Below, in pieces: positions 1,035 through 62,935 of a stretch of 64,000 nt of DNA. Below the pieces are notes generated by a model. That model ran no database searches. It was not told the origin of the DNA and saw only the letters and a list, made by a program, of their open reading frames with translations. Source of the stretch: Candidatus Woesearchaeota archaeon (GTDB taxonomy: Archaea; Nanobdellota; Nanobdellia; Woesearchaeales; JABMPP01); NCBI GenBank assembly GCA_018303405.1, contig JAGVYD010000011.1:15257-79256 (forward strand), given 5' to 3'. Both the position numbers and the translations under genes were made by a program. Position 1 is the first letter of the stretch, and each line of letters starts with the position of its first letter.

Positions 1035-1339
1035 CAGTTGAAAATCTCGCTCACAAAGTTCGCTCGGTCAGCATCGGCTTCGTGCTTTATGATTTATGAA
1101 TGATGTCGTATCCCCGCAACGGTTTCGCCCCTTGACGACGAAATTAGCCTTGAGGGGATTTTCGTTACACTCAATCCCCTGAACTCCATGCTGATTAAAA
1201 TGCGGTTCGGGAGACTTCCAAAGGAATGTCTCCCCGGCTTCCGTGCGAACTGAGGCCGGCTTAGGGACGACCCCCTCCGGCATTGACATGCCTATGCGAG
1301 GAGCACTGCGCAACTTGATGCTGACACTATTTTCAACTG
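1035..1339. ncRNA. GC-rich highly structured intergenic element, candidate ncRNA of unknown class
   Basis: About 300 nt, much more GC-rich than its flanks. Termini are complementary (1035-1045 cagttgaaaat with 1329-1339 attttcaactg; 1067-1075 gtcagcatc with 1317-1325 gatgctgac). Multiple internal perfect hairpins, e.g. AGGGGATT...AATCCCCT, GGGAGAC...GTCTCCC and GCCGGC...GCCGGC. Contains one copy of the ~50-nt hairpin repeat also found near tRNA-Ser. The overlapping 131-aa minus-strand ORF is probably a shadow ORF. Confidence 0.3.
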
Positions 1340-5478: not shown

Positions 5479-6210
5479 TTATGCCAGCTTCCTGTAAACA
5501 TCGCCGTACAGGGAATAGCTGAACACTCCAACCACAAAAAACATCACTGCCAGGCCTATGAACAGCACCAGGTTGAGCAAGGCGGCAATTATGGCTGAGC
5601 ATATCAGCACAATTATCCATGTCAGGAAATAGTCTCCAGAAAAGGCCATGCCGAGCACTTTCCTGAACTGGAACGCGCTGCCAAATTTATTGGTTGCAAC
5701 GTAGTTCAGGACAGCCATCGGCAACATGTACCATGCCAAAAGCGCAAACAGGAATGCCAGCAACAGGATTGGCGCAAATGCCATTACCGCAGGAACTGCC
5801 TGGTACCAATTTTGCCTCAGGATAGCTTCAAGCGCCGCAGCATCGCCACCACCGGCAGCGAACTCCTTAACCATGTCAATCGGCACAATTGTCCCAACAT
5901 AGGTCCTGAAAAGCGAAACCAGGAAGGTTGCCGAGCCAATCATTGCGATGATCAATGCGGGAAGCATGTAAATTACAGTAATAACTGTTGAGGCAAGCCC
6001 CTTCACAAACATTTCACCCCAGTTTTCCCATTCCTGCAATTTGGCCGATGCCTTAACTTTTCCAACACCTGATGATTCCAGGATGTAACCCTTTGTAAAC
6101 CATTTAACAATTGGTATGAGGCTCAGGAGAACCCCTATAATGAACGCTTTCCAATTTGTAAATGGCTTCTTTATAGCTTTCGCAAAATCTACCATCTTTT
6201 CACCACCCAC
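5479..6210 (-). CDS. Hypothetical polytopic membrane protein
   Basis: 243 aa with several hydrophobic helices (e.g. FIIGVLLSLIPIV, LAFLFALLAWYMLPMAVL). No recognisable catalytic motif. Confidence 0.4.
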   Translation of the reverse strand: MGGEKMVDFAKAIKKPFTNWKAFIIGVLLSLIPIVKWFTKGYILESSGVGKVKASAKLQEWENWGEMFVKGLASTVITVIYMLPALIIAMIGSATFLVSLFRTYVGTIVPIDMVKEFAAGGGDAAALEAILRQNWYQAVPAVMAFAPILLLAFLFALLAWYMLPMAVLNYVATNKFGSAFQFRKVLGMAFSGDYFLTWIIVLICSAIIAALLNLVLFIGLAVMFFVVGVFSYSLYGDVYRKLA

Positions 6211-27895: not shown

Positions 27896-27994
27896 TGCAC
27901 GGGATGGATTAAGTTTTTATAGTGGCTGAATCTTTTTGCTTCTATCAATCTCGAATTGTCCCAGTTCGTACGATTGAGTGAGCTCACTGCATTC

Positions 27995-28078
27995 GCGGAG
28001 GTGCCGGAGCGGCCAAACGGGATGGGCTTAGGACCCATTGGCTTAGTGCCTACGCAGGTTCGAATCCTGTCCTCCGCA
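27995..28078 (+). tRNA. tRNA-Leu (anticodon UAG), type II with long variable arm
   Basis: Folds manually: acceptor GCGGAGG/CCTCCGC, 3-bp D-stem, anticodon stem ATGGG/CCCAT with loop CTTAGGA (anticodon TAG), about 15-nt variable arm, T-loop TTCGAAT, discriminator A. Confidence 0.8.
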
Positions 28079-59049: not shown

Positions 59050-59789
59050 TGGCTGGAAAAATCCAATTGTCGATTGTAATCCCTGCGCACAATGAGCACA
59101 GCAATCTCCCATTCCTTCTTGAGGACCTGGTAAATCTCAGGGCAAAACTGCCTGAAGCTGAAATAATAGTTGTGGATGACAATAGCCAGGACACCACGCT
59201 GAAAATCGCAACGGCATTCTCCCGCAAGCATGATTTCATCAGGGCAATACACCGTGGCAAGGGCGACAATGGCATGGGCGCTGCGCTTAAGGAAGGGACG
59301 AAAGCAGCAAAAGGAAAATACGTTGTCTGGCTCATGGGCGACAGGTCGGACAACCTTTCCGCGCTGCCGCAATTTGTAAAAAAGCTTGAGTCAGGCTTTG
59401 ACATGGTTTTTGGCTCAAGGCACATGAAAGGCGGCTCAAGGGGCGACCTTGCGGTATCCAAGGCAATCCTAAGCCATGGCTACACACTCTGCACCAGGAT
59501 TTTATTCGGGATAAGGGTGCATGACATCACAAATGCTTTCAGGGCGTTCAGGAAAGAATTATTTGACAGGATTGCGCTGGAATCAGACAACTTTGCGATA
59601 TCTCCTGAATTTGCAATCAAGGCGCAGCTTGCGGGGTATAAGCTGTGCGAGGTGCCTACAGGTTACAGGGACAGGCAGTCAGGGGTCAGCAAGTTCAAGC
59701 TGGTAAGGATGGGAGTGGATTATGTCAGCCTGTTCAAGTACAGGATAACCGGGTACAAGGCTGGAAAGGGAAAAATCAGGGTTAGGTAA
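59046..59789 (+). CDS. Family-2 glycosyltransferase, dolichyl-phosphate mannose/glucose synthase-like
   Basis: 247 aa. LSIVIPAHNE...IIVVDDNSQD...DxD-like and acceptor-loop motifs of DPM1-type GT2 enzymes. Confidence 0.8.
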   Translation: MMAGKIQLSIVIPAHNEHSNLPFLLEDLVNLRAKLPEAEIIVVDDNSQDTTLKIATAFSRKHDFIRAIHRGKGDNGMGAALKEGTKAAKGKYVVWLMGDRSDNLSALPQFVKKLESGFDMVFGSRHMKGGSRGDLAVSKAILSHGYTLCTRILFGIRVHDITNAFRAFRKELFDRIALESDNFAISPEFAIKAQLAGYKLCEVPTGYRDRQSGVSKFKLVRMGVDYVSLFKYRITGYKAGKGKIRVR

Positions 59790-59836
59790 ACTTTAGGGCA
59801 ATAGCAGCATTCTGGCTTTATTGTCCTGGAAGATAT

Positions 59837-59886
59837 TTGGCACGGAAGGCAGGGAGACGCTCGCTTTGCTCGGTCTCCCGAACTGC
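59837..59886 (+). repeat. 50-bp hairpin repeat, copy 1
   Basis: ttggcacggaaggcagggagacgctcgctttgctcggtctcccgaactgc. Identical to copy 2 and contains the GGGAGAC...GTCTCCC inverted repeat. Confidence 0.8.
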
Positions 59887-59933
59887 ATTTCTTAGGTAAG
59901 ATTTATAATGCGTCATTAAATCCAATATACTGT

Positions 59934-59950
59934 GCCGCGGTCGCTTAGCC
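59934..59950 (+). other. Duplicated 5' fragment of tRNA-Ser (17-19 nt) with its own TATA-like box
   Basis: GCCGCGGTCGCTTAGCC is identical to positions 1-17 of the tRNA-Ser at 60124. Preceded by gatttataatg at about -30, which looks like an archaeal TATA box. The sequence diverges after TAGCC. Confidence 0.6.
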
Positions 59951-59964
59951 ACAACTGGCCTCAG

Positions 59965-60014
59965 TTGGCACGGAAGGCAGGGAGACGCTCGCTTTGCTCG
60001 GTCTCCCGAACTGC
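59965..60014 (+). repeat. 50-bp hairpin repeat, copy 2
   Basis: Perfect 50/50 identity with 59837-59886. A third, diverged copy (GCACGGAAGcCgGGGAGAC...GTCTCCCGAACcGC) lies on the minus strand at 1202-1250. Confidence 0.8.
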
Positions 60015-60123
60015 GACTATCGGCAATAGGGACGGGAATCAATAGCGATTATAACTTTAAAATTACATCGCGTCGGGGAATTTTATGTTCCCCCCGTTTT
60101 TACCAGATTTTTGTTAAAAATCT

Positions 60124-60253
60124 GCCGCGGTCGCTTAGCCCGGTATAGCGCTGGATTGCTAGATACTGTATAACTAGTGTCTTAGAAACCTACTATACCA
60201 TGCAGACATCCAGTGTCCGCAAGGACTCGGGAGTTCAAATCTCCCCCGCGGCG
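60124..60253 (+). tRNA. tRNA-Ser (anticodon GCU) with 46-nt intron at canonical 37/38 position
   Basis: Manual fold: acceptor GCCGCGG/CCGCGGC, D-arm, anticodon stem CTGGA/TCCAG with loop TTGCTA-[intron 60162-60207]-A, long variable arm (GTCC GCAA GGAC), T-arm GGGAG TTCAAAT CTCCC, discriminator G. Oligo-T tract follows. Confidence 0.8.
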
Positions 60254-60290
60254 CTTTTCTTATTTTATAAGGAAGTGAAACGCCAAAAAA

Positions 60291-60560
60291 TTAGTCCTTT
60301 CCCATAAATTTACCAATATACTCCATTATTTTCTCTTTCTTTTCAATATTTATTGAAACATGCTTTCCATAGCCTGTCTTTTTCAAGTACAAAATCCCCT
60401 CTTTAATCAATTCTTCAGAGATTTCCTTAACTCTCCCTTTCAAATCGGGAGGAAAGCTCTTTGCAAGATTCTCAAAGGCAGTGTGGCTATGTTCAAACTT
60501 CCCTTTGCGCGTAAGCTTGTGCAAAATCTTTCCTTTAATCTGTGAATCATTCCACGTCAT
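60291..60560 (-). CDS. Small hypothetical protein (possible winged-helix)
   Basis: 89 aa in AT-rich DNA just 3' of tRNA-Ser. Weak wH-like pattern (GILYLKKTGYGKHVSIN). Confidence 0.25.
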   Translation of the reverse strand: MTWNDSQIKGKILHKLTRKGKFEHSHTAFENLAKSFPPDLKGRVKEISEELIKEGILYLKKTGYGKHVSINIEKKEKIMEYIGKFMGKD

Positions 60561-60632
60561 AAGTCCACCAGAATAGACTTTGAAAGGTTAAATTTATATA
60601 CTTTTCTGTTTATTCAATATCAAGGTAAAAAA

Positions 60633-60962
60633 ATGGAAGAAAAATCGTTATTGCTTAATTTGACGGGAGACTTGCCTTTATTTAGAATAATTGATTTTCT
60701 GCTTGAAAACAAAGGGATGGACTACAGCAAGACAGACATCGCCAAGGGTGCAGGGATTTCAAGGGCATCTTTGTTCAATTACTGGATAGAATTGGAAAAA
60801 CACAGGCTGATAAAAACAACAAGAAGCTTTGGCAAGACAAAGCTGTATACCCTAAACGTTAGCAATCCAATTACACAAAGGATTATTGAGCTTGAGAAAA
60901 CATTGATAAGCGAAGCCATGAACAAAGCTGTGAAGAAAAAAGAAATTTTGGTTGAAAATTGA
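60633..60962 (+). CDS. Winged helix-turn-helix transcriptional regulator, putative
   Basis: 109 aa. DIAKGAGISRASLFNYWIELEKHRLIKTTRSFGKTKLYTL is a typical HTH recognition helix plus wing. Confidence 0.5.
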   Translation: MEEKSLLLNLTGDLPLFRIIDFLLENKGMDYSKTDIAKGAGISRASLFNYWIELEKHRLIKTTRSFGKTKLYTLNVSNPITQRIIELEKTLISEAMNKAVKKKEILVEN

Positions 60963-60996
60963 GTTATTTTTCTGAAACCTTTATTTTTATATATCT

Positions 60997-61587
60997 CTAT
61001 TCTTGTTTGTCAATTTCCCATTCAATTTCTGGATAATGCCTTGGCTTAATTTTCTTGATATTTTTTAATACATACTTTTTGAGTTCTTCCCCATTTTCCT
61101 TTGAATAAGCCCGTACGTTTCCATAAAAGAAATAACTTCCTTTTTGACTCTTGACAATAAGTGCACTGATATAATCATTTACCTTCAGCAAGTTTGGAAA
61201 ATCAATTGTTTTAATTAAGTACTTTTTACTATCTATTACATTCTTAATTAGATAATCTTTTCTGTTAATATGCACAACTTGAAAAAGCGAGTCATTGTAT
61301 TCAACAAAGTTTCTTATAATCTTTCGGTCATTTTTTGTAAAGAAGTCAAGAGGGAATAGCAGTGCATATTCCATTGGCGTTGCGCCCTTAATTTTTCTTT
61401 GAAGCAGAAAATATGATAAGAATCCACTATAATAGGTTGTATCATCTTTTGCTGACTGTGCCTCTTGTGTTGCCTGAAACTCTTTGTTCGCTTTTTGTAA
61501 CTCTTTAGGGTGCAGATTGTTTATGAAACCAAGCACTTTTCTAATCACTTTTGTTTCTGGCTGTATTTTACCCCTTGTCATAATCAA
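60997..61587 (-). CDS. Hypothetical protein (196 aa), third gene of AT-rich cassette
   Basis: About 30 percent GC. Overlaps the upstream gene by 20 nt. No motif recognised. Confidence 0.3.
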   Translation of the reverse strand: MIMTRGKIQPETKVIRKVLGFINNLHPKELQKANKEFQATQEAQSAKDDTTYYSGFLSYFLLQRKIKGATPMEYALLFPLDFFTKNDRKIIRNFVEYNDSLFQVVHINRKDYLIKNVIDSKKYLIKTIDFPNLLKVNDYISALIVKSQKGSYFFYGNVRAYSKENGEELKKYVLKNIKKIKPRHYPEIEWEIDKQE

Positions 61588-61951
61588 AGCCCATTTTCTC
61601 CAAATCTATTCTCAAATACTTTTCCTGCAGGTCATAAACAGTATTATACAAATAATCATTATCCCATTTTGTAAAAATCCCGATATTTTTATGAATACTT
61701 TCTATTAGTTCCATTGGTTTGAGTGATGGCATTGTCATAAAGAAAAAGAAGAAAATTTTATCGTATATCTTTATTGTCACATCAATAAGCTTATATTTTA
61801 CAGAAATAGCTTTTAAAGCATTTCTTAGCCCTTCTTTTTCCTGTATTGTTTCATCATTCATAGTTTTATGACAGTAGAAATATCCTCCTTGGTGCACTGA
61901 GTGGCTGAATTTGTATAATTTTCTTCCTCTTTTATCAACTTCAATCTTCAT
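61568..61951 (-). CDS. Hypothetical protein (127 aa), second gene of AT-rich cassette
   Basis: Translationally coupled to flanking genes (4-nt and 20-nt overlaps). No motif recognised. Confidence 0.3.
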   Translation of the reverse strand: MKIEVDKRGRKLYKFSHSVHQGGYFYCHKTMNDETIQEKEGLRNALKAISVKYKLIDVTIKIYDKIFFFFFMTMPSLKPMELIESIHKNIGIFTKWDNDYLYNTVYDLQEKYLRIDLEKMGFDYDKG

Positions 61952-62229
61952 CTTACATCCAGCCCTTTCATTTTCTTCAGCTTGCTCTGGGGGTTAAATG
62001 TCCAGAGCACTTTATCATCGGAGAAGACTATTTTTCCGCTATATGCCAGATAATCCAATATTGCAATCACTGTCTGATGCATCACCTGCTTTGGCAGCTT
62101 TCTTTTCAATTCAGCAACCGATATCAGACTATCAGCTTTTTGCAGAGTATCCTCTACCATAAGAACTGTATTTAAGGTGGGGCTTCTTTGTTCTGCATAG
62201 TTCCTTGTCTTTAAGGTTATTGTTTGCAT
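61948..62229 (-). CDS. Hypothetical protein (93 aa), first gene of AT-rich cassette, possible wH domain
   Basis: ISVAELKRKLPKQVMHQTVIAILDYLAYSGKIV resembles a winged-helix recognition helix. Weak call. Confidence 0.3.
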   Translation of the reverse strand: MQTITLKTRNYAEQRSPTLNTVLMVEDTLQKADSLISVAELKRKLPKQVMHQTVIAILDYLAYSGKIVFSDDKVLWTFNPQSKLKKMKGLDVR

Positions 62230-62336
62230 ATCAACTGATATAATATCAACTGATATATAAACTTTTCTATTTTTATGTTAATTAAATCAGTGAGTTTAAT
62301 AAACAACTAGGCATTCTCAAGTAAAAAAGTGGTAAG

Positions 62337-62476: not shown

Positions 62477-62707
62477 GTGACCATGCCAAAAACATTTCAC
62501 GTCCTTATCGAGCAAGACGAAGATGGAGTTTACACAGGCAAGGTGCCAGAGCTCCGGGGCTGCCTCAGCCAGGGAGACACCCTAGATGAGCTCATGAAAA
62601 ACATCAAGGAAGCGATTGAGCTATGCCTCGAGGTCCAATCTGAGAAAAACCAGAAGCTTAGCCAGGACAATATCAGATTTGTGGGTGTGCAGCAGCTCGA
62701 GGTGTGA
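62477..62707 (+). CDS. hicB: HicB-family antitoxin
   Basis: 76 aa. FHVLIEQDEDGVYTGKVPELRGCLSQGDTLDELMKNIKEAIELCLE matches the HicB/UPF0150 consensus. Confidence 0.75.
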   Translation: MTMPKTFHVLIEQDEDGVYTGKVPELRGCLSQGDTLDELMKNIKEAIELCLEVQSEKNQKLSQDNIRFVGVQQLEV

Positions 62708-62710
62708 GCC

Positions 62711-62935
62711 TTGAAGCTGCCGCTGCTTTCTTCCAGGGAACTCTGCAAATTCCTTGAAAAAGAAGGATTCAAGGCGGAAAGACAGAAGGGCAGCCACAGA
62801 TTTTACAAGCATGCGGACGGAAGAAGCACAGTTGTCCCTGTTCATGCAAACAAGGATATCAGCAGGGGATTGCTTAAGGCAATCCTTGAAGAAATTGGGA
62901 TGGAAAGGGAAGAATTCTTCAGAAAACTAAAATAG
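62711..62935 (+). CDS. hicA: HicA-family toxin (mRNA interferase)
   Basis: 74 aa. LLSSRELCKFLEKEGFKAERQKGSHRFYKH...TVVPVH matches HicA/YcfA with the catalytic GSH motif. Confidence 0.75.
   Translation: MKLPLLSSRELCKFLEKEGFKAERQKGSHRFYKHADGRSTVVPVHANKDISRGLLKAILEEIGMEREEFFRKLK

Follow-up and report, generated by a model that had tools for sequence, protein, structure and literature searches.

Why should the start of a tRNA gene stand twice in the same intergenic region, once in front of the intact gene and once as a fragment behind a promoter-like box? We addressed this question in a stretch of 64,000 nt from Candidatus Woesearchaeota archaeon (GenBank assembly GCA_018303405.1, contig JAGVYD010000011.1, positions 15,257 to 79,256 of the forward strand; this whole stretch is called the window, and positions without a prefix refer to it). 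There, the beginning of an intron-containing tRNA-Ser(GCU) gene recurs upstream of the gene as a short stump, which a preliminary description had taken for an attachment-site (att) duplication left by an integrative element or, alternatively, for a transcribed tRNA-leader-derived RNA. Our analysis shows that the DNA between the two copies belongs to a family of ~62-nt two-hairpin elements, termed E. We lean, with slightly better than even confidence, towards a small, non-coding and non-autonomous insertion element, made up of E and a tail, that has trapped the promoter of the tRNA gene.

The tRNA gene itself is as the preliminary description had it: a tRNA-Ser(GCU) at 60124-60253 with a 46-nt intron at position 37/38. 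The segment matches Rfam RF00005 on the forward strand at 43.4 bits, above the gathering threshold of 29, the anticodon loop carrying a large insertion. ARAGORN, whose default run missed the gene, calls tRNA-Ser(gct) in intron mode, with a mature length of 85 nt and the 46-nt intron between TGCTA and ATCCA; this search with an intron model, which had been proposed for the locus, gives nothing tRNA-like at the stump. The intron occupies the canonical site, immediately behind the first base 3' of the anticodon. By eye, a bulge-helix-bulge (BHB) splice motif can be made out on top of the anticodon stem, in which TTGC (60156-59) pairs with GCAG (60202-05), the bulges are 3 nt each (TA/G and AC/A), and the inner helix, only 2 bp and weak, marks a relaxed BHB. 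By cloverleaf score and by intron position alike, the gene belongs to the intron-containing class II tRNA-Ser genes of archaea. The intron also holds a stretch of 7-8 nt complementary to the D-arm (GGTATAG at 60142-60148 with CTATACC at 60193-60199). This pairing is kept in two other species (loci L024 and, at ~6005-6075, L013), and where the D-arm of L013 has one C more (GGCTATA), the intron matches it (TATAGCC).

Upstream of the gene, TGCCGCGGTCGCTTAGCC is present twice, at 59933-59950 and 60123-60140, as an exact 18-nt direct repeat with the copies 190 nt apart, which agrees with the recurrence of the first 17-19 nt reported before. With up to three mismatches allowed, the 17-mer of the tRNA start has only two matches in the 64 kb, and 0.08 would be expected by chance. 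The TATA-like box noted ahead of the upstream copy can be pinned to TTTATAAT, which matches 7/8 positions, is the best TATA-like 8-mer within 60 nt upstream of the stump and, judged by archaeal promoter geometry, is a putative promoter element. Likewise, the hairpin and the repeat described behind the stump are both there: hairpin CAACTGgcctCAGTTG at 59952-59967, and 50 nt that recur exactly (59837-59886 and 59965-60014), for which the chance expectation is 0. The insert between the 18-nt repeats measures 172 bp, is non-coding without a credible open reading frame (ORF), and consists of E (~62 nt), an AT-rich tail and a leader module that we call P. The segment between the upstream copy of the 50-nt repeat and the stump, termed X (59887-59932), may be the native tRNA promoter or element-derived, and both readings are kept; as a homologue of the element tails it was rejected, since it does not align with them.

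Five contigs, assembled independently and all from Rifle aquifer groundwater metagenomes, span the 502-nt intergenic region without a single difference, which excludes an artefact of assembly. Another two stop within the region and agree with it to their ends, and still others reached through the downstream gene all show the same spacing. The arrangement is thus real and fixed in this population; the insertion is present in all contigs found, and no empty site was met within the species. Synteny through the upstream glycosyltransferase gene led to a best non-self homologue of 63% identity, whose contigs carry no tRNA there. Several independent assemblies break in or next to the repeats (the ends of L004 and L006, the start of CAZSAD010000030.1 (L014/L023) and the starts of L026/L027), with breaks in the tRNA intron, in the upstream repeat copy, 9 nt before the stump and in E, which points to complexity of coverage or of strains in these places.

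The hairpin and the 50-nt repeat are parts of one element. In E, hairpin 1 is followed by GCACGGAAG, hairpin 2 and GAACTGC. The two linear segments are invariant, as is the 7-bp outer stem of hairpin 2, whose inner stem covaries; in the window, hairpin 2 is formed by GGGAGAC (59980-59986) and GTCTCCC (60001-60007). Across 11 distinct copies, 91.3% of cells are paired versus at most 43% when the partners are slid, six base pairs show compensatory changes on both sides, and none of 500 shuffles reaches the observed covariation score. A covariance model built from 11 copies recovers the complete E behind the stump at 59947-60019 (78.2 bits, E-value 5e-17) and places the upstream, 5'-truncated copy (A1) at 59819-59891 (59.4 bits). 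Unrelated loci give no match to the model, the window gives three, and overall there are 12 in seven sources, at ~7 distinct loci. The tRNA's first 20 nt, scanned against reference genomes, led to L014, a contig of a metagenome-assembled genome with two matches 116 nt apart, and a gapped motif made from the window and L024/L014 versions of E retrieved eight E copies in six Rifle metagenome contigs and no match in viral contigs. The exact 28-nt core of the 50-nt repeat has no match in metagenome, genome and viral collections, which do not contain the source contigs and in which the loops of relatives differ.

Searches of E and stump-E against Rfam 15 returned the tRNA as the sole match at E-value <= 10 in 59700-60400, and nothing meaningful in 850-1550. 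Known ribozymes, a kink-turn and a piece of signal recognition particle RNA or RNase P RNA were considered as identities for E and discarded, as Rfam gave no match at this threshold and the conserved motifs of those RNAs, compared by eye, did not agree with it. No terminal inverted repeats bracket the insert, the hairpins of E being internal only. The E-bearing loci come from related, Woesearchaeota-like archaea of the Rifle aquifer. Their hosts are uncultivated DPANN archaea, judged from sequence affinities, because the named RIO-kinase homologues are from Woesearchaeota/Nanoarchaeota and the glycosyltransferase homologues from DPANN phyla; the "Methanosarcinales" label of the L014 genome is doubtful.

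How E sits in these genomes argues for insertion. Five insertions, counted as independent, share a common layout of left partial target copy, E, AT-rich tail and complete gene. E follows the left copy in every case, separated from it by 0-2 extra bases (A in the window, TG in L024, AA in L018). In the window the target is tRNA-Ser(GCU), with 18 nt duplicated and the copies 100% identical, and tRNA-Ser(GCU) is again the target in a second species (L024/L014), with 25 nt duplicated. At L021 the target is tRNA-Ser(UGA), where a 60-nt block (P plus GCCGCGG) stands twice, 100% identical, around E-S-E-tail (S being a spacer). A RIO-kinase gene is hit at L022: its first 41 nt, counted from the ATG exactly, stand twice around E-S-E-tail, 93% identical with three synonymous differences. 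At L018, a 32-nt block at the end of another gene is repeated with 97% identity around E-tail. L024 is a longer copy of the L014 locus, reached through a neighbouring gene, and its neighbourhood is partly syntenic with the window. Its upstream region leads into the 25-nt tRNA start, TG and an E that reads GAGCTGacctCAGCTC-GCACGG...GGGAGAC...GTCTCCC-AAACTGC, with two compensatory pair changes in hairpin 1 relative to the window; a 27-nt AT-rich tail and the intron-containing tRNA-Ser(GCU) follow. The tails of L018, L024 and the window can be aligned at their start.

For one target the empty site could be found. L028, a 69%-identical RIO orthologue in another Rifle genome, aligns with L022 over the upstream region and the first 41 nt, then shows a single 276-nt gap, after which the gene continues; the gap corresponds to E-S-E plus tail plus one target copy. 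L021 and L019, two separate loci, share a composite of ~290 nt, P-GCCGCGG-E-S-E-tail-P, with ~99% identity, and the homology breaks off precisely at +1 of the tRNA sequence that follows. This identity supports a recent spread of the element and is counted in favour of insertion. The more distant relatives L013 and L016 have tRNA-Ser(GCU) without any insertion.

Two of these loci show arrangements of their own. At L019:7571-8390 (minus strand), nested partial copies of the first 12 nt of a tRNA-Glu(CUC) (GCTCCGCTAGTG) lie ahead of that gene, each with a repeat module 'F' behind it, while a leader module 'G' occurs twice with the tRNA-Ser-type composite between its two copies; the logic of stump, insert and gene is the same and the modules are different. 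At L013:6100-6235, the distant tRNA-Ser(GCU) has no 5' stump, and a near-copy of its 3' end and trailer (CCGCGACGCTCTATTTT) lies ~85 nt downstream, flanking an unrelated short insert.

The insertions at targets other than tRNA genes bear first on the view that the stump is a decayed tandem duplicate of tRNA-Ser, the upstream copy having drifted into hairpins with no mobile element involved. The outer 5 bp of E hairpin 2 (GGGAG/CTCCC) do equal the T-stem of this tRNA, and the L024 stump keeps the whole D-arm. However, E occurs at loci without a tRNA, with target duplications of its own and an empty site; it has neither a T-loop nor a 7-nt anticodon loop, and ARAGORN and Rfam see nothing tRNA-like in it. 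The non-tRNA insertions largely refute this origin, which we regard as very improbable. Even less credence is due to a second, giant intron or split gene, in which the transcript would begin with the stump and lose the 190 nt ahead of the second copy by splicing at a BHB. The CCGCGG of both copies is self-complementary, and a symmetric BHB-like pairing of 2-4-2 bp can be drawn by eye, but its outer helices have only 2 bp, there is no need for splicing when an intact gene with its own upstream module is present, a protein-coding gene shows the same layout, and the trailing sequence finds no complementary partner in the window. The split tRNA genes of Nanoarchaeota, also a DPANN lineage, offer a similar picture of a promoter-bearing tRNA 5' piece followed by GC-rich, hairpin-forming sequence; they differ from the present locus, where the piece is 17 nt long, the intact gene follows 190 nt downstream and the window holds no complementary 3' partner.

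The att-site explanation has more to recommend it. In its classical form, a tyrosine-recombinase element of the pNOB8 or Sulfolobus spindle-shaped virus (SSV) type that carried a tRNA 5' end would have decayed to 172 bp, leaving the stump as attL, and attR. What stands of the preliminary description is that 18-nt repeats of tRNA sequence flank inserted DNA behind a promoter-like box, and that there is a published precedent. In Caldiarchaeum subterraneum, a 5' fragment of tRNA-Thr(GGU) (nt 1-27), a 1.87-kb insert with a putative recombinase and a reconstituted tRNA follow each other in this same order, which the authors explained as pNOB8-type integration (Sugahara et al. 2012, PMC3293823). As in the window, the fragment keeps the native upstream sequence, with the insert next and the complete tRNA last; in Caldiarchaeum the 5' part of the complete tRNA came with the insert, and insert sequence also recurs elsewhere in the genome (PMC3293823). 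The window insert differs in being 172 bp and non-coding, and in belonging to a family that also hits protein-coding genes with duplications of 18-60 nt. A further point for an integrated element is a region of 34% GC with small ORFs and HicAB directly downstream of the tRNA.

What finds no support is a private integrase scar. The insert is non-coding, and E, tail and P recur dispersed at other targets, including the start codon of the RIO-kinase gene and a gene end, a multi-target spread not expected of a site-specific integrase. SSV/pNOB8-type elements likewise have a tRNA direct repeat at both ends of foreign DNA and a reconstituted tRNA, but the window locus lacks an integrase in or near the insert and kb-scale cargo, and E targets the 5' rather than the usual 3' part of the tRNA and is fixed, not polymorphic. 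In place of site specificity, tRNA-Ser(GCU), tRNA-Ser(UGA), a RIO-kinase start and another gene end were each hit with a duplication of their own. No recombinase/integrase, transposase or reverse transcriptase domain was detected in the ten flanking ORFs tested, and no partial 3' copy of the tRNA lies within 10 kb downstream. The comparison with related genomes, by which the att-site idea was to be judged, speaks half against it: the same architecture is present at the same tRNA in a related species, and there is no presence/absence variation within the species. Taken together, we consider an att duplication quite improbable. The downstream region (60260-62300) has 34% GC versus ~47% elsewhere and small ORFs with weak winged-helix matches, with a HicB/HicA pair beyond it at 62477-62935; this low-GC stretch on the 3' side of the tRNA may be an island, with neither a 3' tRNA repeat within 10 kb nor an integrase seen.

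If E was inserted, which promoter serves the locus? The leader module P consists of a hairpin, then GTTTTTACC, then an AT palindrome that ends at tRNA -1. P is 96-97% identical over 28-36 nt to L019 and to the sequence directly upstream of tRNA-Ser(UGA) in L021, with copies at L021:5603-5655 and 5895-5948 and in L019, and its hairpin arms covary between loci (GGGGAA/TTCCCC, GAGAGGC/GCCTCTC, GAGGGAC/GTCCCTC). The hairpin with its T5 run (60075-60101) was flagged as terminator-like, and candidate roles for P are those of terminator-insulator, promoter and processed leader. The distance from the start of the best TATA-like box to the left copy is 25-33 nt in four of the five insertions, and the duplicated segment therefore begins about where transcription should start. 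The boxes ahead of the right copies, at -9 to -25, are too close for transcription to start at the first base of the gene. Elsewhere in the window, the sole TATA-like box ahead of tRNA-Leu (27995-28078) lies ~80 nt upstream, with a hairpin-forming leader after it (both in 27912-27995), so that leaders and RNase P processing are to be expected in this organism; a leaderless, RNase-P-free system like that of Nanoarchaeum was rejected on the position of this box.

Under the insertion reading that we favour, E and tail (with or without P) would have entered tRNA-Ser(GCU) 17 nt from its start. A direct duplication of the initial target sequence would have rebuilt an intact gene downstream and left the original promoter with an 18-nt stump, the left copy of the target duplication. 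The resident promoter would then transcribe a stump-E RNA that either stops at the hairpin-T5 structure of P or runs on into the tRNA. On read-through, RNase P would be predicted to cut at 60123/60124 and free an E-containing leader, after which the splicing endonuclease would take out the 46-nt intron. The element would thus act as a promoter-trapping selfish insertion, presumably tolerated by the host because the gene is rebuilt.

Where the junctions fall leads to a rival account of how E moved. In an RNA-mediated, retroposition-like process, a template-switching reverse transcriptase that jumps between RNA ends would copy E-containing leader RNAs, and the complementary DNA would recombine into the gene; the duplication would then run from a transcript 5' end (the transcription start or the +1 made by RNase P) to the 3' end of a short transcript. 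Such a process would fit the left edges of the duplications, which lie at tRNA -1/+1 in the window, L024 and L019, at the start of P in L021 and, in L022, at the ATG of an apparently leaderless gene, for which the TATA box of the empty site L028 is also ~30 nt upstream. It would also fit the end of the L019 composite exactly at the RNase P site, the 0-2 extra bases at the stump/E junctions, the 5' truncation of A1 and the resemblance of E plus spacer S to a paralogue of part of a ~290-nt non-coding RNA in the window (see below). By contrast, boundaries at functional starts may also be explained by selection for a working gene, the number of cases is ~5-6, and no reverse transcriptase was seen, the search having covered the ten flanking ORFs only. 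We know of no retroposition system of this kind in archaea. We therefore take this route to be unlikely, and hold with the same reserve its wider consequence, namely that E elements would be archaeal retroposon-like copies of processed leader or non-coding RNA with every junction at an RNA terminus, a SINE-like (short interspersed nuclear element), promoter-trapping mobile RNA in DPANN.

Conservation between the two tRNA-Ser(GCU) loci raises another alternative, that stump and E are maintained as an exapted, tRNA-linked small RNA or leader. Such an RNA would be made from a tRNA-type promoter and freed by tRNA processing, or would regulate the maturation of pre-tRNA-Ser. The layout is the same in the second species, where the first 17 stump bases are unchanged while E differs at ~15/62 positions and the intron at more. 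Changes within E are compensatory, the arrangement is fixed in the population, and the stump GGUCGC can pair with the sequence that directly follows E, which is GCGACU in the window and GCGAUC in L024. However, this pairing comes from two sequences and its GCG part is built into the 3' edge of E itself, E is also present at L018 and L022, where there is neither stump nor closing stem, Rfam has no family that matches, and the two tRNA-Ser(GCU) insertions may be independent events. Although a transcribed tRNA-leader-derived RNA, the alternative in the preliminary description, is compatible with the sequence, a maintained function of this kind seems to us improbable.

Several points weigh against the promoter-trapping insertion that we prefer. 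No mobility enzyme or intermediate was identified in the ten ORFs screened, and duplications of 18-60 nt (to ~96 nt in L019) are, to our knowledge, unlike those of any characterised prokaryotic transposon, for which reason "insertion element" names a pattern and not a mechanism. Use of the resident promoter and release of the leader by RNase P are steps that we infer from the arrangement of the sequence, and the TATA boxes were called by a crude consensus in AT-rich DNA. One insertion does not explain A1, which lies upstream of the TATA-like box with 100% identity to the corresponding part of the complete E; either an earlier, nested insertion or local copying or conversion of recent date may lie behind it. 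Nor would a simple staggered cut with duplication lead one to expect that, as is the case in L022, all three differences between the 41-nt copies are synonymous. The insertions in the window and in L024, which have different E loop subtypes and stumps of 17 versus 25 nt, may be orthologous or independent. Finally, the sample is small, at ~7 loci from a few closely related uncultivated genomes, and metagenome contigs can be chimeric across 290-nt repeats, which is chiefly a concern for L019.

Comparison with other short repeats places E between known classes. Like MITEs (miniature transposable elements with inverted repeats) and repetitive extragenic palindromes with their mosaic elements (REP/BIME), E is short, non-coding, hairpin-forming, multi-copy and mostly intergenic, and with MITEs it shares its dispersal, seen in the 12 model matches at ~7 loci. 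It differs from MITEs in having no terminal inverted repeats and in duplications of 18, 25, 32, 41 and 60 nt that are neither short nor fixed, from REPs in having target duplications at all (18-60 nt), and from both in being oriented directly after a promoter-proximal gene stump. Eukaryotic SINEs and retropseudogenes and the tRNA-gene-targeting retroelements Ty3 and Dictyostelium TRE5 display non-autonomous, structured RNA-derived copies, variable duplications, 5' truncation and association with tRNA gene starts, and E resembles them. E shares with the SINE type the variable length of the target duplication, the truncated A1 and perhaps the tie to a larger non-coding RNA; it differs in that no reverse transcriptase partner, A-tail or internal promoter is shown for it, and the likeness is a resemblance only. 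The features of the window are collected in Table 1.

Table 1. Features of the tRNA-Ser(GCU) locus and the third E copy in the window.
Feature	Position	Strand	Basis or remark
A1, 5'-truncated E copy without hairpin 1	59837-59886	+	100% identical to 59965-60014
TATA-like box TTTATAAT	59902-59909	+	starts 31 nt before left copy
Stump, left target copy (T at -1 plus tRNA nt 1-17)	59933-59950	+	exact direct repeat
A2, complete E (hairpin 1 at 59952-59967, GCACGGAAG, hairpin 2, GAACTGC)	59952-60014	+	covariance model, covariation
AT-rich tail of the insertion	60015-60069	+	start aligns with tails of L018 and L024
Second TATA-like box GATTATAAC, inside tail	60047-60055	+	read from sequence
Leader/promoter module P	60070-60122	+	hairpin 60075-60093, T5 run 60097-60101, AT palindrome AGATTTTTgttAAAAATCT 60105-60123
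Right target copy, start of intact tRNA	60123-60140	+	exact direct repeat
tRNA-Ser(GCU)	exon 1 60124-60161, intron 60162-60207 (46 nt), exon 2 60208-60253	+	Rfam, ARAGORN -i
Third E copy	1197-1267	-	covariance model, 69.2 bits; within conserved non-coding locus of ~290 nt, ~1040-1335 (-)

The third E copy of the window is part of a larger conserved locus of ~290 nt. This locus has its own upstream TATA-like box and a long-range closing stem (GTCAGCATC ... GATGCTGAC), and within it E is followed by the hairpin module 'G'. Another Rifle genome has a counterpart (L020/L017) of 82% identity between other flanking genes; Rfam gives no match to the locus at E-value <= 10. A reading as a protein gene (an ORF of 131 aa) was rejected, as substitutions are spread 17/18/16 over the codon positions and the orthologue contains stop codons. 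Both E and an S/G-like module form part of this locus, and derivation could have gone in either direction.

The main content of these results is the element family that they expose, not the single locus. Were the locus only a decayed integrase scar, it would be a routine observation. If the pattern holds genome-wide, ultra-small archaea would harbour tiny non-coding elements that land just inside transcribed gene starts, hijack the resident promoter and rebuild the gene by a long duplication starting at the transcript 5' end. We know of no characterised prokaryotic insertion mechanism with such a signature. The work also flags a conserved structured RNA of ~290 nt that shares modules with E. 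If true, the pattern would bear on the fragmentation of archaeal tRNA genes, the question behind split and multi-intron tRNAs, and would provide a concrete case for RNA-end-defined DNA rearrangement in archaea.

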